Below, piece after piece: positions 4,973-36,536 of a stretch of 36,536 nt of DNA. Numbering within the stretch: the stretch's first letter is position 1; each line of letters starts with the position of its first letter. The notes beneath the pieces were generated by a model that was not told the DNA's origin, did not search any database, and saw only the letters and a program-made list of their open reading frames with translations. The stretch comes from an uncultured Bacilli bacterium (lineage in GTDB: Bacteria > Bacillota_I > Bacilli_A > RF39 > UBA660), in the NCBI GenBank assembly GCA_947628105.1, contig CANQYN010000001.1, forward strand, positions 1-36,536, written 5' to 3'. The position numbers and the translations under genes were made by a program.

Positions 4973-5866
4973 GTGCAAGAAGATTTGATAGAAGAATTTA
5001 TCAATTATTTATTAATCGATAAAAAATATAGTAAAAATACCATTCTTTCTTACCGAGAAGAACTAAAACTATTCTTTTCATACACTTCGAAAGAAGTAAC
5101 GAAAATCGAAAAAGACGATATTGTTTCATACATGAAATACGAAAAAGATTCTGGCTGTCAAGAAAAGACAATTGCTCATTTTATAACTACCTTACGAAGT
5201 TTTTATAAATTTTTAGAAATAGAAGGAATTCAAACAAAAAATCCAATGGAATATATCAGCTTACCCAAAGTGAAAAAACGCTTGCCCAATTATTTAACGA
5301 AAGAAGAGGTGGATTTATTGTTAGATATTCCTCTTACAAATCGCTATTCTTATCGCAATAAAGCGATGTTAGAATTGATGTATGCGACTGGAGTTCGAAC
5401 TAGTGAATTATTAAATTTAAAGATGCCAGATATAAATTTAGAATATGCTTTAATTCGAGTCAATGGGAAAGGTAGTAAAGAGCGACTAATTCCAATGGGT
5501 GATTATGCTCTTTATTACGTATCTTTATATATTGAAAATTATCGAGGTCAATTTTTACAATCAAAACAAAGCGATTATGTATTTTTAAGTAATCATGGAA
5601 CATTAATGACTAGACAAGCCTTTTTCAAAATTATCAAACAATTAGCTCAAGCTAAGCATATTACGAAAGAAATTTCTCCCCATGTTTTACGACATTCTTT
5701 TGCGACTCATATGATCGAAAATGGGGCAGATATTCGTAGTGTTCAAGAATTATTGGGACATTCCAGTGTTTCAACAACTCAAATATATACTAATTTATCA
5801 AATCAATTCGTAGAAGATAGTTATGAGAATTTTCATCCTCACGGGAATAAAAAGGAGGTAATATAA
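4973..5866 (+). CDS. xerD: Site-specific tyrosine recombinase, XerD/XerC type
   Basis: N-terminal core-binding domain (KNTILSYREELKLFF). Catalytic motifs ATGVRTSEL and HVLRHSFATHMIENGADIRSVQELLGHSSVSTTQIYT. GTG start. XerD versus XerC cannot be separated by eye. Confidence 0.8.
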   Translation: MQEDLIEEFINYLLIDKKYSKNTILSYREELKLFFSYTSKEVTKIEKDDIVSYMKYEKDSGCQEKTIAHFITTLRSFYKFLEIEGIQTKNPMEYISLPKVKKRLPNYLTKEEVDLLLDIPLTNRYSYRNKAMLELMYATGVRTSELLNLKMPDINLEYALIRVNGKGSKERLIPMGDYALYYVSLYIENYRGQFLQSKQSDYVFLSNHGTLMTRQAFFKIIKQLAQAKHITKEISPHVLRHSFATHMIENGADIRSVQELLGHSSVSTTQIYTNLSNQFVEDSYENFHPHGNKKEVI

Positions 5867-7221
5867 TGCAAAGTAAAATATTTAAAGAATATGATATTCG
5901 AGGAATATATCCTACCGAATTTGATGAAAATAGTGCCTATACAATAGGAAAAGCTTATGGGACTTTTATCAAAAAAAAGAACCAAACAAAATCGATGGTA
6001 GGTTACGATAATCGTCTTTCTTCTCCTTCATTAAAAAAGGCTTTAGTAGAAGGAATTATCAGTAGTGGGATTGATGTTTTAGATTTAGGTTTAGTAACAA
6101 CTCCTATGTTTTATTACGCGAAAAAAAGAACAAATACGCCTTGTGGAATCATGGTAACAGCAAGTCATAATCCCAAAGATTATAATGGATTTAAAATTTC
6201 TTTTTCGGAAATAGGAAATGCTTATGGAGAACAAATCCAAGAATTTAAACGATTCATTATTGAAGGAAATTTCGATGATGGAAAGGGGAGTGTCATTCCT
6301 TACGATATTAAAGAAGATTATATTAATTTATTAACAAGCACATTAGATATTGGAAATCGTCATGTTAAAGTGTTAGTTGATTGTGGAAACGGAACGGGGT
6401 CCATCATTATTAAAGATATTATGGATCGTTTACAAATTACTTATGATTTACTATATTGTGAAAGTGATGGTAATTTTCCTCATCATCATCCCGATCCTAG
6501 CGTAAAGACAAACTTAATAGATTTAGGTAGGGAAGTAAGAAATAAAGGTTATACATTCGGTTTTGCCGTCGATGGAGATGCGGATCGTTTAGGAATGGTT
6601 GATGAAAATGGTTCGCCGATAAGTGCGGATTTAATTATGGTTATTTTTTATCGATATCTTTATAAAAAAATGCCAGTTAAAAAAGCAATTTATGATGTAA
6701 AAAGTTCAAATAAATTAATTGATGAATTAAATAAATTAGGATATCAATGTACGATGTATCGTACTGGAAATTCATATATGAATATGAAAATAAATAAAGA
6801 TAACTATACTTTTGGAGGAGAATACTCTGGTCATTTATGGTTTAACGACGAGCGTTTTCCCGGATTTGACGATGGAATTTATGCAGGATTACGTATGATT
6901 GAATTATTATCCAATACCGACAAAACTGTTTCTGCTTTATTAGAAGGTTTAGAAGAATATCTTTCTACCGATGAAATCATCATGCCAGTTCCCGACAATA
7001 AAAAATTTGATATCGTAGAAAAAGTAAAAGAATATGCCAAATCAAAAGACTATGAATGCATTACCATTGATGGCATTCGCGTTAATTTTCCAGACGGTTG
7101 GGCTTTAGTTAGAGCATCTAATACAGGTCCTAATCTAACCTTACGTTTTGAAGCAAAATCAGAAGAACGATTACATAATATACAAATTGAATTCCAAGAT
7201 TTAATCAATAGTTTCATATAA
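5866..7221 (+). CDS. Phosphomannomutase/phosphoglucomutase (alpha-D-phosphohexomutase family)
   Basis: Catalytic Ser loop TASHNP, Mg loop FAVDGDADR, sugar loop GGEYSGH. The N-terminal FKEYDIRG is typical of PMM/PGM rather than GlmM. SD AAGGAGG. The start overlaps the xerD stop. Confidence 0.88.
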   Translation: MQSKIFKEYDIRGIYPTEFDENSAYTIGKAYGTFIKKKNQTKSMVGYDNRLSSPSLKKALVEGIISSGIDVLDLGLVTTPMFYYAKKRTNTPCGIMVTASHNPKDYNGFKISFSEIGNAYGEQIQEFKRFIIEGNFDDGKGSVIPYDIKEDYINLLTSTLDIGNRHVKVLVDCGNGTGSIIIKDIMDRLQITYDLLYCESDGNFPHHHPDPSVKTNLIDLGREVRNKGYTFGFAVDGDADRLGMVDENGSPISADLIMVIFYRYLYKKMPVKKAIYDVKSSNKLIDELNKLGYQCTMYRTGNSYMNMKINKDNYTFGGEYSGHLWFNDERFPGFDDGIYAGLRMIELLSNTDKTVSALLEGLEEYLSTDEIIMPVPDNKKFDIVEKVKEYAKSKDYECITIDGIRVNFPDGWALVRASNTGPNLTLRFEAKSEERLHNIQIEFQDLINSFI

Positions 7222-28280: not shown

Positions 28281-29954
28281 CTATTTCATTAATTGTTCTT
28301 CTAAATGGTTTATTTCATCAGAAATTGACTTTTTCTGTTTTTGGGTTAAATCAGATATTTTGATTGCCTTATCAATAGTATCTTTAATATTTGATTTTTT
28401 TGTCACCGTTCCATTAACCTCGGCCTTAATATCGATATAAGTAAAATCTTTTTGCTTTACTTTTACTTGTATCAATTCTTTATTTTTAAAATCATCGTCT
28501 TCTTTCAATAATTCCGTTTCCACCTTAAATTGTAATGTTATATTTTGATAATCAATATTAAAATCAAAAGTGACATAATCATCTTTTTGAATAATCTTAA
28601 CATTTCCTACTTTTTTATCTTTATCATCGGTAAAATCAACGGTCGTTTCATCTCCGTTTGTCTTAACAAGAGCACTAGCAATAAGACGATCTTGATAATA
28701 CAAATTAATCGTATCATTTTTTTCATCAAGGTAAACTAATTTAATATTATCTTCTTCACTTTGAATGTCTAATTCATATTTTAATTCTTTACAAGTAATG
28801 GTATTGGTATATACCGTAAATAAAATTTTATCTTTTCCCCAATTTTTATTATTCCATTTTAAATCTTTTAGTTTAATACCATATTTTTCTAATATTTCCT
28901 CTAATTTCTTATCGCTTTTCAAATCACTTACGACATTTTTAAAAAATTCATTTCCATTTTTATTATCTAATACTAAAGTATTTTTTTTCACCTTAGTCAT
29001 TTTTCCTTGAAGTTTTATTTTCGTATTCTCTGTTGTAAAATAATCTTCTTTTAAATTTCTTTTCAAAGCTCCTATTACATAATGATAAATATAGTCTAAA
29101 TTATCATAAAGTCCAGAATTTCCTACTTTAAATTCTTTTATAATAGCATTCGAATCTTCTAATTCAATATAATTATCTAACGCATTACGATAACGAACGT
29201 AATTTTTTTCATTTTGATTAATTAATCGAACATCAAAAAGTTCTTTATCATGTAATTTTCCATTCATCTTTAAAAATGTTTTTTTGCTTTTTGATTCATT
29301 CATTACCTGCAATTTAATATTACTATCATTTAAATTTTTTACTAGTTTAGCATAAGGTTTATATTCTGAAAATTGTGAAAAAGTATCTAATAAGTCAGAA
29401 TGAATGTCAAAATTAATTGTTCCATCTAACGTGTAATCAGATCCTATTTTATTTCCAAATGTTTGTTGATCAAAAACTCCATCAAATTTTTCTGACAAAC
29501 TAGTAATAGCATGAGACATAATTCTTTTTGGATTCATAAAATAAAATTTATATATACTAAAGCCAATCAATAAAACGGCTAACAAAACAAAAAGCGGAAA
29601 TAAAATTTTTCTAAATTTTGATCTTTCTTTTTCCTTTGTAAATAACATTTCTAACTGATAATCTTTTTTTGTTTCATCAGTGCTTTCTTTTTCTTTTGGT
29701 TTTGTTTCGATATTTTCTACTTTCTTTTTTTGTAGTGCATCCTTCTTTTGAGATTCTGTACTTTTTACTACCTTTTTTGTCGCCTTATTTTCTTCCTTTA
29801 CAGTTGCTTGTTTTTTAGAAGGATTTTTTTTAGAATTTTTATTTTTTACAGTAGTTGATTTAGAACTAGATGCTTTGGTATTATTCTTACTAGACGTTTT
29901 TTTCGAATTTGTTTGTTTTTTTCTTTCTATTTCCTTTTTATTTTCTTCTTTCAT
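28281..29954 (-). CDS. Hypothetical membrane-anchored protein with a Lys-rich N-terminus and a large extracytoplasmic domain
   Basis: About 115 aa of basic low-complexity sequence (KKTSSKNNTKASSSKSTTVKNKNSKK...), one TM helix (ILFPLFVLLAVLLIGFSIY), then about 420 aa with no recognised motif. ATG 29954 follows AGGAG by 8 nt. Confidence 0.55.
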   Translation of the reverse strand: MKEENKKEIERKKQTNSKKTSSKNNTKASSSKSTTVKNKNSKKNPSKKQATVKEENKATKKVVKSTESQKKDALQKKKVENIETKPKEKESTDETKKDYQLEMLFTKEKERSKFRKILFPLFVLLAVLLIGFSIYKFYFMNPKRIMSHAITSLSEKFDGVFDQQTFGNKIGSDYTLDGTINFDIHSDLLDTFSQFSEYKPYAKLVKNLNDSNIKLQVMNESKSKKTFLKMNGKLHDKELFDVRLINQNEKNYVRYRNALDNYIELEDSNAIIKEFKVGNSGLYDNLDYIYHYVIGALKRNLKEDYFTTENTKIKLQGKMTKVKKNTLVLDNKNGNEFFKNVVSDLKSDKKLEEILEKYGIKLKDLKWNNKNWGKDKILFTVYTNTITCKELKYELDIQSEEDNIKLVYLDEKNDTINLYYQDRLIASALVKTNGDETTVDFTDDKDKKVGNVKIIQKDDYVTFDFNIDYQNITLQFKVETELLKEDDDFKNKELIQVKVKQKDFTYIDIKAEVNGTVTKKSNIKDTIDKAIKISDLTQKQKKSISDEINHLEEQLMK

Positions 29955-30009
29955 TTTTCTCACTCCTATAATAATTATATCACATAATATGACAAAATAA
30001 GATAAATTT

Positions 30010-30037
30010 CAAAAAAAAGACAAAATATTTTGTCTTT
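30010..30037 (-). terminator. Strong rho-independent terminator at the native 3' end of the split amidase gene
   Basis: Perfect palindrome aaagacaaaat/attttgtcttt (30016-30037), followed on the minus strand by an 8-T run. Overlaps the stop codon at 30036-30038. Confidence 0.7.
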
Positions 30038-30050
30038 AAGGAATATATAG

Positions 30051-30229
30051 CATTTGTCCGATTTGTAAATCATTACTCTCTAAACGATTAAAACTTTTTA
30101 ACTCCGTTGCCGTAATGCCAAATTGATTGGCAATTTTCCACAAACTATCTCCTGGTTTTACAATATATGTTTTTTCTGCTTCTTTCGAAGATGTTGTCGG
30201 AATTATTAACATTTGTCCGATTTGTAAAT
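30051..30229. repeat. Pair of perfect 20-bp direct repeats inside the LysM-coding fragment
   Basis: catttgtccgatttgtaaat occurs at 30051-30070 and at 30210-30229 (encoding LQIGQML in two LysM modules), 159 bp apart. Confidence 0.8.
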
Positions 30230-30304
30230 TATCACTCATTAAATTGTTAGCTCGTTTAATATCATTAATCGTTGTGTTAAATTGTTTTGCTAAATTCCAT
30301 AATG

Positions 30305-30313
30305 TATCCCCTG
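30305..30313. repeat. Left junction core of the integrated element (att core copy 1)
   Basis: TATCCCCTG is identical to the 9-mer at 34920-34928. It falls in the codon phase GGG GAT A of the LysM reading frame on the minus strand. Confidence 0.75.
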
Positions 30314-30404
30314 ATACATTTTTTATGTCATATTTTTAAATAAAAATATTTCATTTTTCTTTATTGATATCATAAAGCTTTGAACACAAATTATTTCAAA
30401 TTCT

Positions 30405-31058
30405 TTATATAGATATTATTAAATGATTTCGTTTCATTAATTTCAAAGTTTTAACTAATTTATTATTAAGTCTTGGCCTTGTAAATTGCTCTTCTAATAT
30501 TAATTTGCTATTTTTATATCTGTCATAGGCAAATTGATAATCTTCGTTTTTTATTGCTTGGACACAAGGATTCACTACATTATCATAAATATATTTATAA
30601 ATGCTAAAGCTATCTTCAAGTTCATTAATTGCTTCTACTATGATAGGAGCTATTTTATAATAATGTTCTATATCTTCATCTGAAACAAAATTATTTCTAA
30701 ACCATCTTAATATTGTTAATTCTTCACAATTATCATCAAAATTTTCTTGCATATGTATCATACATGCACTTGTTAAATAGCATCCACCATTATCTTGAAC
30801 TTCACCTATCGTTGGATTAGACGAGCTATTACTCTTATTTCTACTATAATCCGGATCTTTTCCCTTGTTATAATCATCATTATTTTCCCATCTAGCATGT
30901 GAATGTCCACCATCACCATTGTTAACATATCTATTTACTGAACCCCTTTTTTCATAACTGGTATATTGTAAATTAGAATCATTATAATCTTCGTATCGAT
31001 CTACATCATAGCTGGCATAACCCCAATCTCTATTATTTCCGCCTTTACTATTAGACAT
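30405..31058 (-). CDS. Hypothetical 217-aa protein: disordered Asn/Asp/Gly/Tyr-rich N-half plus a Cys-motif helical C-half
   Basis: Start at ATG 31058 (MSNSKGG) with AAGGAGGG 7 nt upstream, overlapping the upstream ORF by 8 nt. The C-half reads GGCYLTSACMIHMQENFDDNCEELTILRWFRNNF...EHYYKIAPIIVEAI. Confidence 0.6.
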   Translation of the reverse strand: MSNSKGGNNRDWGYASYDVDRYEDYNDSNLQYTSYEKRGSVNRYVNNGDGGHSHARWENNDDYNKGKDPDYSRNKSNSSSNPTIGEVQDNGGCYLTSACMIHMQENFDDNCEELTILRWFRNNFVSDEDIEHYYKIAPIIVEAINELEDSFSIYKYIYDNVVNPCVQAIKNEDYQFAYDRYKNSKLILEEQFTRPRLNNKLVKTLKLMKRNHLIISI

Positions 31059-31347
31059 GAAATTTCCCTCCTTTATCAAACATAGAATTATACTCAATAG
31101 TTCCATCTTCATATATTATAAATTTTTCTTCCCCTATTTTTTCAAGCGTTAATATTAATTTAGTAACAATAGATTCTTTATCGCTATCATTTTTTTTGCT
31201 TAATAAACGATAGGCTTTTAAATCTTTATTGAAACTATCAAATAATTCTTTATTTTCTTTTGTTGCATCATAATAAGATTCTAATGCTAATGACCCTTTA
31301 AAAATAAATTTATCGTAGTTATTTTTATTAATTGAAAAATTATTCAT
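31051..31347 (-). CDS. Hypothetical 98-aa protein, translationally coupled to the 217-aa ORF
   Basis: ORF with AAAGGAG 11 nt upstream. No motif recognised. Its stop overlaps the start of the next ORF. Confidence 0.5.
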   Translation of the reverse strand: MNNFSINKNNYDKFIFKGSLALESYYDATKENKELFDSFNKDLKAYRLLSKKNDSDKESIVTKLILTLEKIGEEKFIIYEDGTIEYNSMFDKGGKFHV

Positions 31348-31375
31348 ACATTTAAAAACTCCTTTCTTATATAAA

Positions 31376-31404
31376 ATTATAATCTTTTTTTATCAAAAAA
31401 ACAA
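31376..31404 (-). promoter_or_regulatory. Candidate sigma-A-type promoter for the 98-aa/217-aa pair
   Basis: Minus strand: TTGTTT (31404-31399), 17-nt spacer, TATAAT (31381-31376), about 30 nt upstream of the 98-aa ORF. Confidence 0.4.
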
Positions 31405-31449
31405 TTTTATTCGTTACTGTCTATAAAAATTTTATTTCTAAATACCTTT

Positions 31450-33045
31450 TTATGTAGTATTTTTAAATGTAAATATAATATCTATCCTCTTATCTTGATA
31501 AATATAAATTTTTTCAACTAAATTTATTATTAATTCTCTTGTTGGCTCCTCTATTGATAAAAATTCATTAATGTATTTTTTTATTTGCTTATTATCTACT
31601 TTATTTGAAGCTATTTGTTCACTTTTAAGATTATCAATCCTCTTTTTATTATCATCTATTTCACTTTTTATATTTTCACTTATTCTTAAATATTGTAATT
31701 CATCAATGACACCTTTTAACCTATCCATATAAGTTTTATCTAAACTTTCAGTCAGTTTATTATTGGTAATTTTGAAATGTTCTATCTGTTTTTTAGTTTT
31801 TAAAGTTTTGTCTTCAAATTTTATATTTCCAATAGAATCTTTTATTTTGTTTTTATCAAGATATTTATGACAAACATCCTTAACATTATCTAAAATTACT
31901 TTTTCTAATGTTTCATAATTATTTGTATGTGTAGTACAAACATGATACTTTGAATATGTTCTGTAATAATCGCAAGTAGTATAACTTCTTCCTGTTTTAT
32001 TTTGATATCTTATTGTTATTCGATGCTTACAATCTCCACAGTATAAAAGGCCATCTAATAAATAAAATCTTTTCTTCTCTGGTCTTTTTACATTTTTAGG
32101 TAGTAGTGTTTGAACATAATTAAAAGTATCTCTATCTATTATCGCTTCATGAGTATTCTTAACAATTATATAATCATTAGGACTATTTTTAACTGTCTTC
32201 TTTAATTTATAATTAATCTTTTTAGTTTTACCTTGAACTGAATCTCCTACATAGATTTGATTAGTTAAAATTGCTTTTACAGTTGTATCAACCCATACAC
32301 CTTGCTTTTGTAAAATACATTTACTCTTGCACTTTGTATTCCAAACATAATTATAATAGGATGCTGGAGTCTTAATTTTTCTTTTGGTAAGTTCTTGTGC
32401 TATATAATGATAGGTATTCCCTTGAAGTGCTAAATCAAATATTAACTTAACAGTCCTAGCTTGTTCTTCATTTATTATTAAATGATTTTTATTATTTGGA
32501 TCTTTTATGTACCCAAAAGGACATCTTCCAGACACATATAAACCATCTTTCATTCTTGAATGTAGACTAGTTTTAACTTTTTTTGAAATATCTTTAGCAT
32601 ACATATCATTCATTATTGCTTTAAAAGGCGCTATATCATTATTGGTATTATCTATGAATGTATCTATCCCATCATTAATAGCAATATATCTTATATTATT
32701 GTTTGGAAAGTATTTTTCTATTAATTCTCCTGTTCCAATATAATCTCTACCTAATCTTGACATATCTTTCGTAATAATCATATTGATTTTACCAAATTCA
32801 ATATCTTTCATCATTCTTTTAAAAGCAGGTCTTTCAAAATTAGTTCCTGTAAACCCATCATCTACATACTCATCTATAACATTATAATTATTTTCTTTAA
32901 CATATTGATTAAGTAAACTTCTTTGACTGACGATACTATCAGATTCGTGTGTTAAATCATCTCTTGATAATCTTATATAAAGTCCTACATTAAAACTATT
33001 ATTTACGATTCTCAATTCATACTCCTTTCTTTTTGGAAGTATCAT
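31450..33045 (-). CDS. Large serine recombinase (resolvase/invertase catalytic domain, recombinase domain, zinc ribbon, coiled coil)
   Basis: Catalytic region VGLYIRLSRDD...SQR...YVDDGFTGTNFERPAFKRMM...IITKDMSRLGRDY. Zinc ribbon LYCGDCKHRI...TCDYY...HVCTTH. C-terminal LVEKIYIYQDKRIDIIFTF resembles the DUF4368-type end. A TTG at 33015 with AAAGGAG 7 nt upstream is an alternative start. Confidence 0.93.
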   Translation of the reverse strand: MILPKRKEYELRIVNNSFNVGLYIRLSRDDLTHESDSIVSQRSLLNQYVKENNYNVIDEYVDDGFTGTNFERPAFKRMMKDIEFGKINMIITKDMSRLGRDYIGTGELIEKYFPNNNIRYIAINDGIDTFIDNTNNDIAPFKAIMNDMYAKDISKKVKTSLHSRMKDGLYVSGRCPFGYIKDPNNKNHLIINEEQARTVKLIFDLALQGNTYHYIAQELTKRKIKTPASYYNYVWNTKCKSKCILQKQGVWVDTTVKAILTNQIYVGDSVQGKTKKINYKLKKTVKNSPNDYIIVKNTHEAIIDRDTFNYVQTLLPKNVKRPEKKRFYLLDGLLYCGDCKHRITIRYQNKTGRSYTTCDYYRTYSKYHVCTTHTNNYETLEKVILDNVKDVCHKYLDKNKIKDSIGNIKFEDKTLKTKKQIEHFKITNNKLTESLDKTYMDRLKGVIDELQYLRISENIKSEIDDNKKRIDNLKSEQIASNKVDNKQIKKYINEFLSIEEPTRELIINLVEKIYIYQDKRIDIIFTFKNTT

Positions 33046-33181
33046 TGAATAGTATCTTCTTATTTAAAATATTATAATTCATATATTGCTTTTCTAATTC
33101 TATTTTTAATACATTCGTTATTATGTCATTTAAAGATTTACCATTTTCTTTAAATTTTAAATTAACATTATATTTAACCAT
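33017..33181 (-). CDS. Possible 54-aa ORF coupled to the recombinase gene
   Basis: Read manually: MVKYNVNLKFKENGKSLNDIITNVLKIELEKQYMNYNILNKKILFNDTSKKKGV*. GGAGG lies 11 nt upstream. The stop (33019-33017) sits 1 nt before the alternative TTG start of the recombinase. Below the track length cutoff. Confidence 0.35.
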   Translation of the reverse strand: MVKYNVNLKFKENGKSLNDIITNVLKIELEKQYMNYNILNKKILFNDTSKKKGV

Positions 33182-33611
33182 AGAGTTTCATACCTCCAAT
33201 AAATTCTATGGCTTTAAAATTTAAATAAGTAATATTATTTAGATAATAATACCCCTAACAATATTACTTGTTATCATAGTCCTCCTGATTGTTTATTCCT
33301 CGATTAAATATTTTTCCTCTGAAATTAAATCTTCTCATTTATATTATCTTCTTTTCACGATACATGATACCCCCCACTAAAAAGAAGAGTCAAGTCATTA
33401 AGTATAGAAAGTTTTGTCTATCATCCTATAATACTTGCAAATGCATTAATTTATAAAAAAGCAGGATAAGATGTTTACACATCAATACTAAACTAATCCT
33501 TATTTTATAAGAGTTGATTATGGTGCTATTCTTATTTTGTACTTACGAAATTCATTCTACTTTGTAGGTTGATATAAAGAATAAAGTAAATAATATCAAT
33601 ACATTAGATCA

Positions 33612-33660
33612 CAAAAAATCATCCTAATTTATAGTTTTCGCTAAATTTTATAGGATGATT
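33612..33660 (-). terminator. Terminator after the kinase-like gene
   Basis: atcatccta (33618-33626) pairs with taggatgat (33651-33659), loop 24 nt. On the minus strand it is followed by TTTTTTG. Confidence 0.5.
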
Positions 33661-33678
33661 ATTTTTTACTAGTTAAGG

Positions 33679-34830
33679 TCATATATAATTATTTTTTGTA
33701 TAAATTTCATATTTAGAATACAAGTCATTTAAAAATCTAGTGGAATTTTCATTTTGTTCTGATTCTTCTATTTTTTTTCCTATTGTTCTTATCATCGTTT
33801 CAGTAAATTTAGATTCTAAATCATATTCATAATCATATTCATCTTGATAATTACACTTATTAATTGAATTTTTTTTATGATATTTCCATATTTCCATTAA
33901 ACAAAATAAATTTGAATCATTTCTAATATCATTAACTTCTACACTCCAAAACTTTTCACCATTATTAGTTATTTTATCGATAATTTGGTCTACCACTATT
34001 TCATATAATTCATCATAAACCGGATAATCTTCTTCTTCTAATTTAAATAAATCTTTCTTGACAACTCCTTGTTCCATTAAATATTGTTTTAAGCCAGCAT
34101 CTTTATCAAACAAATAAAATTTTTCATATTTTTCAAAATTAGGAATTACAGATTTAATTGCAAGAAGAGTCTTTGCTTCTATAGAATACTCCAATAAGTC
34201 TTTTTTTGATTGTTGATCTAGTGATAACTCCTCATTATATTTAAGTGTCGATGCAATTTGTCTAGGTTTAGGTGTTACAAATTTTAATGCTTTAAACAAT
34301 TTAATAGGATTATTTTCATCAAATACTTTTTCTACATCATAATGCAAAAAATCTATAAACCAAAATCCAGTTTCTTCATCGTAAAATAAATTTTTAGGTT
34401 TAGCCTCATACCCCATTTCATATAACATACAACCATCACTAATAAGTTTTTTATAATGTTCAAATGGAATGTTATAAACACGATTTAAATCTGAAATTAC
34501 CGTATCATATGAAACACCATATTTCGCCATAGAAGCGCAATTTTTTCCTTTGCATTTTTCTTGTAATACATAACAAACATCATCACTTCCTTCAATTGTC
34601 CTCATAACAGAAATATGCTTTGGAGTGTTAACACCTTTTTGAATTTTTTGATTAACCCCTTCCATAACCCTCTCTTCACAATCACGTGCTCGATGATTAT
34701 ATTTAACATATTTTAACGGAAGCATATATTTTACTAAAACAACATCCCCAAAATCAAAGCATTGACTTCCTCCATCACTTATATTTTGTTTGTTTTTAGA
34801 TTGCTCAATTGCATATTTTATATCTATCAT
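33679..34830 (-). CDS. Protein-kinase-like fold protein (atypical catalytic loop) with a helical C-terminal domain
   Basis: Gly-rich loop plus Lys (ISDGGSQCFDFGDVVLVKY), hinge-like VCYVLQEKCKG, catalytic-loop-like GYEAKPKNLFYD, DFG-like WFIDFLHYD. SD AAGGAG 8 nt upstream. TGTTATAAT extended -10 at 34858-34850. Confidence 0.5.
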   Translation of the reverse strand: MIDIKYAIEQSKNKQNISDGGSQCFDFGDVVLVKYMLPLKYVKYNHRARDCEERVMEGVNQKIQKGVNTPKHISVMRTIEGSDDVCYVLQEKCKGKNCASMAKYGVSYDTVISDLNRVYNIPFEHYKKLISDGCMLYEMGYEAKPKNLFYDEETGFWFIDFLHYDVEKVFDENNPIKLFKALKFVTPKPRQIASTLKYNEELSLDQQSKKDLLEYSIEAKTLLAIKSVIPNFEKYEKFYLFDKDAGLKQYLMEQGVVKKDLFKLEEEDYPVYDELYEIVVDQIIDKITNNGEKFWSVEVNDIRNDSNLFCLMEIWKYHKKNSINKCNYQDEYDYEYDLESKFTETMIRTIGKKIEESEQNENSTRFLNDLYSKYEIYTKNNYI

Positions 34831-34893
34831 ATCGTTTACTCCTTTTTTTATTATAACATATTTATAATCATAAATATCATTATTTAAATATTA

Positions 34894-35871
34894 CTACCCA
34901 TTATTCCCCATAAAAATTCTATCCCCTGCTTTAACTGTATAAGAAGTTGTAGATAAAAAGGGTGACTCTCCTGATTCTGAAAGTAAAAGGACTTGACCAA
35001 CATAAATATCATCATTTGTTAAATTGTTCAATATTTTTAAATCCGATACACTCATATTAAACTGCTTGGCAATCTTATATAAACTATCCCCCGCTTTGAC
35101 TGTATAAGTAGTTTCAGTAACAATATTTTCTTCTTTCATAGGTATTTGTAATACTTGACCAATCGATAAATTATCAGACGATAAATTATTCAATTTTTTT
35201 ATTTCATCAACCTTCGTATTAAATTGCTTTGCTAGTTTCCACAACGTATCTCCATTTTGTACTACATATGTATTCCCCGTTGAAGGAACAGTTGGAAGAG
35301 AATATCCATTTTCTTGTAAAATAGCTCTTATTACTGCATCTACATATTTTTTATAATTTTTCTGAATACGGTCAAGATCTGAAGCATTATCAATAAATCC
35401 ATACTCTACAATAACAGGTTGTGTTTTTCCGGTATTTCTTAAAATATAATAATAATCTAAATTAGGATTAGAAGTGGATCTTCTTTGATAATATGATCGA
35501 GTTATTTGTCCTTCTTTTCCAATTTCAGATAAAATACTACGAGCAAGATTATCATTATTACGAAGAGCATATATCACCTCTGCTCCTTGTGCACCTTTAA
35601 TAGCAGAACCGGCCGCATTAATATGATTAGAAACTACAATCACATTCGGAGAATCCCCAAACGCATTTAATACTCGTTTTACTCGTTCTGTTGGATTTAC
35701 TGTTTCATCAGTAGAACGTACTAATTTTACTGGAATTCCTAATTCCTTAAAACGATCATACATATATTTTGAAATTTGTAAAGTTAAATCTTTTTCTTTT
35801 ACTCCATTCCCTACTGCACCAGAATCCGCTCCCCCATGTCCAGCATCTACAACCACCTCTAAATTATTCAT
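34894..35871 (-). CDS. N-acetylmuramoyl-L-alanine amidase (Amidase_3) with LysM modules, 3'-truncated by the insertion
   Basis: Amidase_3 motifs [36 protein letters not shown]. Two complete LysM modules ([17 protein letters not shown]...IGQVLQIP; [17 protein letters not shown]...VGQVLLL) and a third cut after KAGD. ATG 35871 follows AGAGGTGA. Confidence 0.88.
34920..34928. repeat. Right junction core of the integrated element (att core copy 2)
   Basis: TATCCCCTG is identical to 30305-30313. It lies at the point where the third LysM module of the amidase stops making sense (…SYTVKAGD|RIFMGNNG*). Confidence 0.75.
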
Positions 35872-35974
35872 CTTTTTCACCTCTAATATAACGTATGACA
35901 TGATAATCTTTTGGTGATATAAGAAAATTATTATTTACTAAATAAAACTTCAAATATTGCATTATTTTTTTCAA

Positions 35975-35999
35975 TGAAAAAACCAATCATCCGATTGGT
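35975..35999 (-). terminator. Rho-independent terminator after the 118-aa membrane protein gene
   Basis: Minus strand: ACCAATC pairs with GATTGGT (35999-35993 and 35988-35982), loop 4 nt, followed by TTTTTT. Confidence 0.6.
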
Positions 36000-36022
36000 C
36001 TTTTATTATTCATTTCACCTTG

Positions 36023-36379
36023 TTAAAATAAACCAAATAATTCAGCTATAAAATTAATAATGAATGTCAAAACAACCATAGTTGTTAGAATTGAAAAAAT
36101 ACTAAATGATACTTTTAAGAAAACTTCTTTTTTGGATTTAATACCAATAATGATATAAAAAATAGCCAATATATATACTAAAATATTGTCAATCCAAAGC
36201 AAAGGACCATTGATATATTTTAATAAAAAATCATTAATTTTCGTCGTATCATAGGAATAATTATAAATTAAGTAAGTAAAATTCAAAACAACAATAATAA
36301 AACTGATAAAAGTAAATATAATTAATCCATTTTTTACTATTTTTTCAATATCAAATTTTTTCTTTTTTTCCTCTTCCAT
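36023..36379 (-). CDS. Hypothetical small integral membrane protein (118 aa, about 3 TM helices)
   Basis: Charged N-terminus (MEEEKKKKFD) followed by three hydrophobic helices. Own terminator. No motif recognised. Confidence 0.5.
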   Translation of the reverse strand: MEEEKKKKFDIEKIVKNGLIIFTFISFIIVVLNFTYLIYNYSYDTTKINDFLLKYINGPLLWIDNILVYILAIFYIIIGIKSKKEVFLKVSFSIFSILTTMVVLTFIINFIAELFGLF

Positions 36380-36536
36380 AATTCCTTACCTTTCTATAAT
36401 TATAGTGTATCATAACTACATAACAAAGTAAATAATAGATATAGTAAAAGACATATAACTTGTAGTGTTACAATTGATGTGAAACATTTCTATATAAAAA
36501 AGTAATTCAAGTCGTATAATTGAGTTAACCAAAACA

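Follow-up and report, generated by a model that had tools for sequence, protein, structure and literature searches.

A compact recombinase-encoding island inside a LysM amidase gene of an uncultured member of the Bacilli

The 36,536-bp contig CANQYN010000001.1, from an uncultured bacterium of the Bacilli known only as a metagenome-assembled genome, contains a peptidoglycan amidase gene that is interrupted by a compact element encoding a large serine recombinase (LSR). The entire contig was analysed, and is referred to here as the window. The locus raises the question of what the element is doing there. A first-pass annotation of the sequence suggested a developmentally excised intervening element resembling skin or SPbeta, which would rebuild the amidase gene during sporulation. 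The element is real, and we find that it belongs to a large and horizontally spreading family; on balance we favour the explanation that it is a mobile island for which the amidase gene is a safe harbour, and that it has no dedicated developmental programme.

The element and the gene that it interrupts

All features for which window coordinates are given lie on the minus strand. The amidase open reading frame (ORF) begins at 35871 with MNNLEV, and its 5' segment (34921–35871) encodes an Amidase_3 domain (8e-33), two LysM repeats and the first nine codons of a third, reaching ...TSYTVKAGD at 34921. Past this point it continues for eight foreign codons, RIFMGNNG, to a stop at 34894. The remainder of the third LysM repeat (TLWNLAKQFN..., TLWNLAKQFNTTINDIKRANNL) picks up at 30304 and is followed by LysM4 and a stop codon, the gene ending at 30036 (3' segment, 30036–30304). 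After the stop there is a terminator-like hairpin and T-run, read directly from the sequence (30009–30035, AAAGACAAAATATTTTGTCTTTTTTTT).

A 9-bp core, CAGGGGATA, is found in two copies, at 34928–34920 and 30313–30305. With one core copy counted, the element is 4,615 bp long (30305–34919) and splits LysM repeat 3 of 4. When the two halves are joined in silico at the core, they give a 1,251-nucleotide in-frame sequence and an ORF of 406 residues from the MNNLEV start. The repaired ORF has matches to Amidase_3 and to four LysM repeats, while the interrupted ORF has only two LysM matches; a 113-nucleotide LysM-coding repeat is present in four copies, two on either side of the gap. An intact orthologue of 405 residues (P0143, from the related locus L006) is 73% identical to the window amidase. 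A coding sequence is thus interrupted in such a way that precise excision restores it in silico, as in the skin/SPbeta/gin class of elements. The insertion is not a chance event: in other genomes, 58 insertions that arose independently have the same element ends. The first-pass annotation was therefore correct in describing a compact, in-frame element inside a peptidoglycan amidase gene, although the interval 31450–33181, to which it referred, holds only the recombinase gene and a 54-codon ORF.

The attachment (att) sites can be read at both ends. In attL (34885–34955), a target (B) arm ending ...TATACAGTTAAAGCAGG is followed by the left-end (P') arm of the element, GGATAGAATTTTTATGGGGAAT. In attR (30305–30349), a copy of the last ~30 nucleotides of an LSR gene (...ACATAA) is followed by the right-end (P) arm AAAATGTATC and the core. 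The attP reconstructed for the window is CATAAAAAATGTATC-AGGG-GATAGAATTTTTATG. This is the arrangement found in LSR elements: attL and attR share a short core, and the two arms of attP form an imperfect inverted repeat centred on a dinucleotide that is not palindromic.

The ORFs of the element also lie on the minus strand, in the order 383-residue ORF, regulatory region of ~500 nucleotides, 54-codon ORF (here called the small ORF), LSR gene, and ORFs of 98 and 235 residues. The LSR gene (31450–33015) would encode 521 residues from a TTG at 33015, or 531 from an alternative ATG at 33045. The TTG, which stands behind an AAAGGAG Shine-Dalgarno sequence, is the likely start because the LSRs of related elements have 518–521 residues and begin MRIVN.... 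The stop codon of the small ORF is 1 nucleotide ahead of this TTG; use of the ATG would give an overlap of 29 nucleotides. The LSR has the three domains typical of its class, a Resolvase catalytic domain (PF00239, 9e-21), a Recombinase domain (PF07508, 5e-22) and a zinc ribbon (Zn_ribbon_recom, PF13408, 4e-10). It matches the phrog_95 integrase at 7e-104 and contains the serine motif YIRLSRDD. Among named LSRs the best match is TndX, with 36% identity across 98% of the query; among solved structures it is the TnpX catalytic domain (2e-29).

The element is a tandem composite, since a decayed attP-like site follows the LSR stop codon and a second copy of the end of an LSR gene precedes the true attR. 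The inner site (31416–31455, ACATAAAAAGGTATTTAGAAATAAAATTTTTATAG) lies immediately after the LSR stop and has lost the central GG, the consensus core being kept only at the outer sites. Unit A (3,487 bp) carries the recombination genes, while unit B (~1,128 bp) has lost its recombinase and carries the other two cargo ORFs (30405–31347), of 98 residues (31347–31051) and 235 residues (31112–30405). Intact inner attP sites are present in related loci, in the tandem of L043 and in L107. Tandem arrays with intact or decayed attP between the units were seen at L043:11509-11560, L107:137-171, L064:4025-5386 and L039:3336, and are puzzling for an LSR that is expected to recombine only attP with attB.

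The three cargo ORFs of the window gave no match in Pfam, PHROG or PADLOC. For the 383-residue protein (33679–34830), AlphaFold2 predicted a confident structure (predicted local distance difference test score of 94) with a protein-kinase-like fold. A Foldseek search against the PDB returned protein kinases, the resemblance being weak (E ~1e-4, TM 0.2–0.3). In its sequence, EAKPKN looks like the catalytic loop of a kinase, with Glu at the place of the catalytic Asp, and FWFIDF looks like the DFG motif. It has ~144 homologues, one of which adjoins the attP junction in L107. The pair of 98 and 235 residues is found between LSR and attR in L056 and also occurs in L064, and homologues of the 235-residue protein are present in 10 elements. 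Rfam gave nothing at E <= 1 in the interval 29900-36536.

A family of islands aimed at LysM codons

Relatives were sought by scanning one genome per GTDB species with 8-residue peptides of the window LSR. At least 598 stretches matched, and among the matches listed 508 encode a relative of the LSR. The best 80 loci of these listed matches have LSRs 75–92% identical to that of the window and represent at least 80 species-level genomes; the family as a whole is probably present in more than 500. A protein database yielded more than 120 clusters (at 90% identity) of LSRs that are 82–91% identical to the window LSR. Exact-sequence searches with the window LSR, from either start, and with the truncated amidase gave no match. 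In phage and plasmid collections, none of the relatives exceeded 60% identity. Host records carry the labels uncultured Bacilli, 'Tenericutes' or Erysipelotrichaceae, those of chromosome scale being 1.2–1.5 Mb long, and the related loci come from the guts of rabbit, human (Hadza and others), mouse and ruminants.

The 58 elements that were sized are 2.3–7.9 kb long (median 4.1 kb) and have near-invariant ends. The small ORF and the LSR gene occupy the right end, and are the only universal genes (53/58 and 55/58, respectively). The right-end consensus is ACATAAAAAnnGTATCWGG^nGATAC..., and in 44 of the 58 elements a distance of 15 bp separates the LSR stop codon (ACA TAA) from the crossover GG. 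The left-end consensus, GGnGATAnAATTTTTATGGGGAAT, holds in 58 loci and is written ...GG^nGATAnAATTTTTATGGGGAAT. The family attP reconstructed from these ends is a near-perfect palindrome, CATAAAAAnnGTATC-WGGn-GATAnAATTTTTATG, whose central GG is invariant in 55 loci.

In contrast to this nearly invariant attP, attB has 54 distinct sequences in 55 loci. Its consensus, tTATAc.GT.aAAa.aGG.GATAc.tTaT..agtATtGC, corresponds to the codons Y-x-V-x-x-G-D-(T/S)-L-(W/Y)-x-I-A, which are the start of a LysM repeat. For an LSR, an attB made up of codons for a motif in a protein domain is an unusual target logic, and more than 50 natural attB variants against a single attP should be useful for studies of LSR site recognition and for genome-engineering tools. 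This family of islands whose LSRs target LysM codons is large, new, and apparently undescribed.

All 58 insertions are at the same GD(T/S)L codons, in any repeat of the LysM array from the first to the last. The interrupted genes encode Amidase_3 plus LysM proteins (28), other LysM proteins (16), M23 peptidases (3) and a GH25 muramidase (1), these last four being lysins of prophage type, with 10 unresolved. In two prophage contigs from IMG/VR (L089 and L090, 7155–11569), a related island lies inside an M23-LysM lysin gene at the prophage end. Judging from N-terminal sequences, this lysin gene is preceded by genes for tail-fibre-like proteins, a holin-like protein, a GH25-like lysin and two further small membrane proteins. 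The varied LysM targets, prophage lysins among them, therefore indicate that the LSR recognises the sequence coding for the motif and not a single locus, and the islands could travel on phages.

It is worth adding that other LSRs are linked to interruptions elsewhere in the same amidase. In at least 10 loci, including L011, L017, L024, L032, L037, L042, L078, L079 and L082, the amidase frame opens only at ...GG(D/E/T)GAE(V/I)IYALRN (residue ~92). Only right junctions are visible, at about L011:4091, L078:8308 and L082:8023 for example, and four of the loci have a common right end, TTACAC(A/T)(A/T)TGAyyAT(C/T)G(C/G)C(A/T)GG^TGG. A co-oriented LSR (31–38% identity) lies 0.1–2.7 kb upstream in nine of these loci, with none in range in L079. 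At L057:3496 and L076:6278 a third LSR lies directly ahead of the GHGG motif of the amidase (residue ~10). The middle amidase fragments are open for 119–242 codons and are 52–60% similar to the window protein, as are uninterrupted copies. The N-terminal fragments are outside the 10 kb that were fetched, and these cases are therefore half documented; if real, they favour regulated excision somewhere in the system, because a split in the catalytic domain needs repair to give a working enzyme.

Two further loci deserve mention. A complete 1.31-Mb chromosome, OZ006981.1 (390–11563; L001–L004 and L061), has three different LSR genes within 11 kb. Its LysM-targeting island is 2.9 kb long, with only 13 open codons ahead of the left junction, and the locus looks like an accumulation of several LSR elements within a single target gene. 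The 6.7-kb contig L033 looked circular but was set aside: it holds only a 531-bp exact repeat (1–531 and 5716–6246, comprising the LSR 3' end, attR, the amidase 3' fragment and the terminator), which may be a duplication or an assembly artefact.

The islands do not follow their hosts. Their G+C content is ~0.24 regardless of that of the flanks, which ranges from 0.20 to 0.46, the flank of L029 (labelled 'Eubacterium sp. CAG:180') being at 0.459. Across 136 locus pairs, LSR identity is 86% for the protein and 0.58 at fourfold-degenerate third positions. Host divergence, measured from the amidase domain alone, gave 49% and 0.39, the latter near the saturation estimated for this base composition; a tblastn search with 11 chromosomal genes of the window matched only the lipid kinase gene DAGK, in L006. 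The LSR and amidase-domain divergences are uncorrelated (r = 0.04). Comparison of the loci thus argues firmly for horizontal spread between species, with no co-divergence with the hosts. The LSRs retain high protein identity over well-diverged silent sites, which shows strong purifying selection, and they therefore appear to be functional.

Many of the islands carry defence genes. Among the variable cargo of the relatives are Type II methyltransferases, a restriction enzyme, an Old/AriA/AbiL-like ATPase, AbiU, the candidate system PDC-M33A, RhuM and an ASCH-domain protein, together with an HNH-like protein that was recognised from its Cys/His motifs and has no PADLOC match. Examples of anti-phage cargo are at L024:7758-8528, L025:8290-9183, L046:842-2722, L036:5810-7525 and L057:5907-7820. 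To judge from these genes, the family acts as a set of mini defence islands. They are among the smallest autonomous-looking LSR elements, and the systems that they spread through uncultured Bacilli of the gut are restriction-modification, Old/AbiL-like and AbiU systems and candidate defence systems.

The target gene and the timing of excision

Upstream of the amidase is a sigmaK-type promoter (35889–35917), with a -35 of TCACC (35917–35913), a 16-nucleotide spacer after the AC, and a -10 of CATACGTTA (35897–35889). This motif, TCACC-N16-CATACGTTA, is 26 nucleotides ahead of the ATG and downstream of a terminator, and it matches the B. subtilis sigmaK consensus KCACM / GCATANNNTA (PMC3416734). 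Among the 16 distinct orthologues whose start lies in the fetched loci, CATAnnnTA is present in 14, between -23 and -31, and most of these also have (C)AC at 16 nucleotides upstream; the sequence around the motif is not conserved. In a background of 962 Shine-Dalgarno-led ORFs from the same loci, amidases included, the -10 box is found for 4.9% and the full motif for 2.4%. The box is also present at several of the other targeted LysM genes, and phage-type targets lack it. The amidase has no signal peptide, its catalytic DAGHGG motif beginning at residue 9. On these features it looks like a late mother-cell gene, and this is what speaks most strongly for the idea of the first-pass annotation; relatives of the island also occupy non-sporulation and prophage LysM genes. 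An identification as CwlD was rejected, the NCBIfam CwlD model scoring 82 bits against a cutoff of 222 and the protein having no membrane anchor.

The host can be taken to be an endospore-former because the window contains gpr, as previously noted (GPR endopeptidase; the TIGR01441 score of 340 bits is well above the cutoff of 120). The other sporulation genes that had been named fared less well. The match to spoIIM, at 92 bits, is just under the 100-bit threshold, the ORF taken as ylbJ matches a Gate domain only, and a YlmC/YmxH protein was not found in the window.

On a different account of the locus, the amidase would be a prophage endolysin, the prophage would lie past the end of the contig, and the island would simply have landed in a phage lysis gene. 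The contig itself ends at 36536, so that it offers no sequence to the right of this point. Just upstream of the signal-less amidase, close to the contig edge, is a gene for a multi-pass membrane protein of 118 residues (36379–36023), the amidase matches endolysin PHROGs, and the M23-LysM lysin of L089/L090 demonstrates that an island can occupy such a gene. We nevertheless consider this very improbable. The 73%-identical orthologue in L006 is in conserved synteny with the window: it has a polysaccharide deacetylase gene and a membrane-protein gene upstream, and downstream, past an inserted block of two-component and ATP-binding cassette transporter genes, are DAGK and its two flanking ORFs, as in the window. 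In 13 other loci the genes beside the orthologue are ordinary chromosomal ones (RelA-like, ClpP-like and UvdE-like, from N-terminal readings). A terminator (35982–35999) separates the amidase from the membrane-protein gene, the amidase has its own conserved sigmaK-type promoter, and no phage genes were found in the window. The amidase is thus best regarded as chromosomal.

By its size and position the 118-residue protein (36023–36379) is like a holin, but it matches no family, and orthologous amidases do not have it as a conserved neighbour. Directly downstream of the amidase is an ORF of 560 residues (28281–29963) with a Lys/Ser-rich N-terminus, one predicted membrane helix and no Pfam family, which has a 29%-identical homologue in L006 with the same placement relative to DAGK.

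The regulatory region of the recombination operon is ambiguous as to timing. Upstream of the operon is a sigmaA-type promoter-like site, P1 (33364–33393, TTGACT-N18-TATCAT). A generic sigma-70 scan was uninformative, finding 70 sites against 58 expected; P1 is credible because it is conserved across related elements, TTGACT-N17-19-TAYYAT being kept in 30 of 53 loci, the window included. Most of these have a dyad in the spacer, which is broken in the window copy. P1 is followed by a 24-codon remnant (33264–33338, MRRFNFRGKIFNRGINNQEDYDNK) of a gene of ~55–67 residues that is intact in some relatives. By eye, the intact form reads as a ribbon-helix-helix-like regulator; it has no Pfam match. Next comes a conserved 17-bp imperfect hairpin (33228–33269), the 3' arm of which is a 12-bp palindromic box, AGTAATATTACT, beside a putative -35; the window copy is imperfect. 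RNAalifold, run on 24 loci (alignment A2, the window plus 23), placed 17 pairs in the stem, five of them with compensatory changes. The hairpin may be an operator or a leader RNA structure. In many loci it is overlapped by a Shine-Dalgarno-led upstream ORF of ~35 codons, which is cut to 12 codons in the window.

Closest to the small ORF, 29 nucleotides ahead of its ATG, is an invariant box, CATAGAAT (33203–33210). CATAG(A/G)nTT is found in 50 of 53 related elements, including those without P1, and the ~65 nucleotides ahead of the small ORF are nearly invariant (AATAATATTACTAAAAnAAAAATTAAAACCATAGAATTTATTGGAGGTAT). The box can be read as a -10 of the sigmaE/K class (CATAnAnT) or as a sigmaA TAGAAT. 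It agrees with the sigmaE -10 KCATANANTN and comes close to the sigmaK box, and it is spaced from the Shine-Dalgarno sequence just as the -10 of the amidase is. Upstream of it, the best AC is 18 nucleotides away, an atypical -35 and spacer, and TAGAAT with TTACTA-N18 gives a weak sigmaA reading. Read for a sigmaE/K-type promoter, the sequence ahead of the recombinase thus offers a fitting -10 in CATAGAAT but an atypical -35 and an 18-nucleotide spacer, with the sigmaA-type P1 upstream. Overall the layout reads as that of a self-regulated mobile-element module, and not as that of a gene reserved for sporulation.

The small ORF (33017–33181) is predicted to encode 54 residues in the window, where an indel alters the last ~13 relative to the relatives. 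The relatives have 59 residues (MVKYKVNLKFKENGKSLNEIITEVLKIELQKK...HTHYSQ...), and in the 53 of 58 elements that contain it the ORF always abuts the LSR start. It has no match in Pfam, PHROG or PADLOC, and a single-sequence AlphaFold2 run, giving one long helix, was uninformative on function. Other LSR families in these loci (27–40% identical) also have small upstream ORFs, of 30–50 residues, with a similar amphipathic motif, ...(D/E)(I/L)I..(L/F)(I/L).E, which suggests that the small ORF and the LSR may be an old recombinase-partner pair. The coupled ORF noted in the first-pass annotation is thus a consistent partner of the LSR gene, and its proposed role as an accessory or recombination directionality factor (RDF) is one that we infer. 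In size it matches the RDFs of sporulation elements, GirX (42 residues) and CD1234 (reported as 53 or 72 residues) (PMC5595907, PMC10747680).

On the basis of these observations, we suggest that the element of the window is a composite copy of a widespread type of miniature integrative island, moved by a TnpX/TndX-like LSR together with a small partner protein. The LSR would recognise an attB written by conserved LysM codons and pair it with the near-palindromic attP, whose left arm overlaps the LSR stop codon, with strand exchange at the invariant central GG. Integration would split a LysM repeat; in the reverse reaction, between attL and attR, the island would leave as a 4.6-kb circle and the amidase with its four LysM repeats would be restored exactly. 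The islands are mostly found in a sigmaK-type, signal-less (CwlC-like) amidase gene, where insertion would be cheap for the vegetative cell and thus tolerated. The timing of excision would most likely be set by the sigmaA-type promoter and operator region of the element itself, and not by a dedicated sporulation programme.

Several observations weigh against this interpretation. Neither an excised form nor a same-species empty site was found, and a search for attP junctions returned one 1.4-kb metagenome contig (L107), apparently a tandem junction, and no viral contig. No relaxase was detected among the ORFs of the window element (with Pfam, PHROG and PADLOC) or in the common cargo clusters, oriT not having been searched for; no other transfer function was seen. 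The window copy has signs of wear, in its decayed inner att site, shifted small-ORF C-terminus, truncated regulator gene and broken P1 dyad. Finally there are three pointers to a mother-cell link: the sigmaK-type promoter of the main target gene, the invariance of CATAGAAT even in elements that lack P1, and the interruption of the catalytic domain by other LSR families with the fragments still open.

The signs of wear, together with the loss of the LSR from unit B, could mean that this composite copy can no longer be excised and is a fixed, immobile remnant, the host using the truncated amidase, which retains the catalytic domain and two LysM repeats, or doing without. This is improbable. At both outer sites, attL and attR, the family consensus is preserved, central GG included, and the LSR has an uninterrupted ORF with 91% identity to the nearest relatives, in a family under strong purifying selection. 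The 3' amidase fragment is also still open, with two good LysM repeats and a terminator.

The pointers to the mother cell bear on the proposal of programmed excision, in the manner of skin, SPbeta and gin. Here the LSR and the small ORF, acting as directionality factor, would rebuild a sigmaK-dependent lytic amidase in the mother cell while the forespore keeps the island. Their expression might come from a promoter at CATAGAAT or from read-through, either of which is a tentative suggestion. A gpr-containing host, a signal-less amidase with KCACM-N16-CATAnnnTA in 14 of 16 orthologues against ~5% in the background, similar boxes at several other targets, a conserved partner ORF of the same size as GirX and CD1234, a box that fits the sigmaE -10, and further interruptions at GGxGAE codons in at least 10 relatives are all as this proposal would predict. 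Against it are the conserved sigmaA-type P1, the non-canonical -35 and alternative TAGAAT reading of CATAGAAT, and the distribution of the family, which is horizontally spread, not private and vertical, and includes prophage lysins and non-sporulation LysM genes. Coupling of the small ORF to the LSR gene would mean that the pair always favours excision; the need for repair is weak, because the truncated amidase still has two LysM repeats; and the nearest characterised LSRs, TnpX and TndX, excise and integrate without a directionality factor (PMC5704250). We therefore regard programmed excision as plausible but not the likelier explanation: the resemblance to skin and SPbeta holds for the structural features and for the gpr-containing host, and fails in that this is no private, domesticated element but part of a horizontally spreading family with a sigmaA-type P1.

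Were excision linked to sporulation, a phenomenon known from a few cultured strains of Bacillus and Clostridium would reach hundreds of species in the gut. CwlC-like lysis amidases would be added as a new class of target, and a recombination module of only two genes would be added as a minimal form. In its fullest and doubtful form, the idea is that gut endospore-forming Bacilli host a very large, undescribed class of minimal (2–8 kb) islands, each with an LSR and a directionality factor of ~59 residues, which have their safe harbour in sigmaK-controlled genes for LysM cell-wall hydrolases, are excised in the mother cell so that its lysis amidase is rebuilt, and are kept in the spore germ line. 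At least three LSR families would then use one amidase, at its GHGG, GGxGAE and LysM GD codons, and the islands would double as anti-phage shuttles. We retain the mobile safe-harbour island as the preferred explanation in the comparisons that follow.

Comparison with known systems

The element can be likened to both of two known kinds, the sporulation gene-intervening elements and the LSR transposons of the Tn4451 type. The likeness to the first kind begins with the target. CwlC of B. subtilis is a sigmaK-dependent lytic amidase of the mother cell, with an N-terminal Amidase_3 domain, no signal peptide and C-terminal SPOR wall-binding repeats. The window amidase likewise has an N-terminal Amidase_3 domain, no signal peptide, C-terminal wall-binding repeats and, in silico, a sigmaK-type promoter, but its wall-binding region consists of four LysM repeats instead of SPOR, and the likeness is one of features.

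Genes that are needed only in a terminally differentiated cell are also interrupted in cyanobacteria, where the heterocyst elements in nifD, fdxN and hupL carry their own recombinases (XisA, XisF and XisC). In the present case, similarly, up to three LSR families strike one amidase gene. The phylum and the recombinases are different, and developmental timing is hypothetical here.

The sporulation intervening elements include skin (SpoIVCA) in sigK, SPbeta (SprA/SprB) in spsM, vfbin, vrin, gin (GirC/GirX) in gerE, and yin in yabG (PMC5595907, PMC4191935, PMC10747680). As in that class, an LSR element interrupts a mother-cell gene (here a predicted one) in an endospore-former. The flanking core repeat is short, the protein that accompanies the LSR is very small, and precise excision would make the ORF whole again. 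The island is like gin in lacking phage genes and in having relatives with restriction-modification genes as cargo (PMC5595907, PMC4191935, PMC10747680), although at 2.3–8 kb the islands are ~6-fold smaller than gin (28.6 kb). They differ from the whole class in having a new target, the LysM codons of an amidase, that is, a motif-coding sequence common to many genes; in their presence in at least 80 species-level genomes, with clear horizontal spread; and in an accessory gene that abuts the LSR gene in an operon with a sigmaA-type promoter, developmental excision being hypothetical here.

The closest characterised recombinases, at only ~36% identity, are TnpX of Tn4451/Tn4453 and TndX of Tn5397, which are integrative mobilisable or conjugative transposons from Clostridia. 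The islands resemble these transposons in their size of a few kb, tandem or circular junctions and cargo, and would likewise move as a circle and use a 2-bp crossover. Unlike Tn4451/Tn4453, the window copy and the common cargo contain no relaxase module (oriT was not included in the search). The target of the islands is strict (LysM GD codons and central GG, 58/58), whereas the specificity of Tn4451 is low, and the islands have a conserved small partner ORF, whereas TnpX needs no RDF (PMC5704250).

The integrative and mobilisable elements that use a serine recombinase, such as those in rumA in streptococci, share with the islands a single LSR, insertion into a coding sequence and short flanking direct repeats (PMC5704250). 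The islands are distinguished from these by having no recognisable mobilisation module, by their use of a repeated domain motif as the target, and by their hosts, the endospore-forming Bacilli of the gut.

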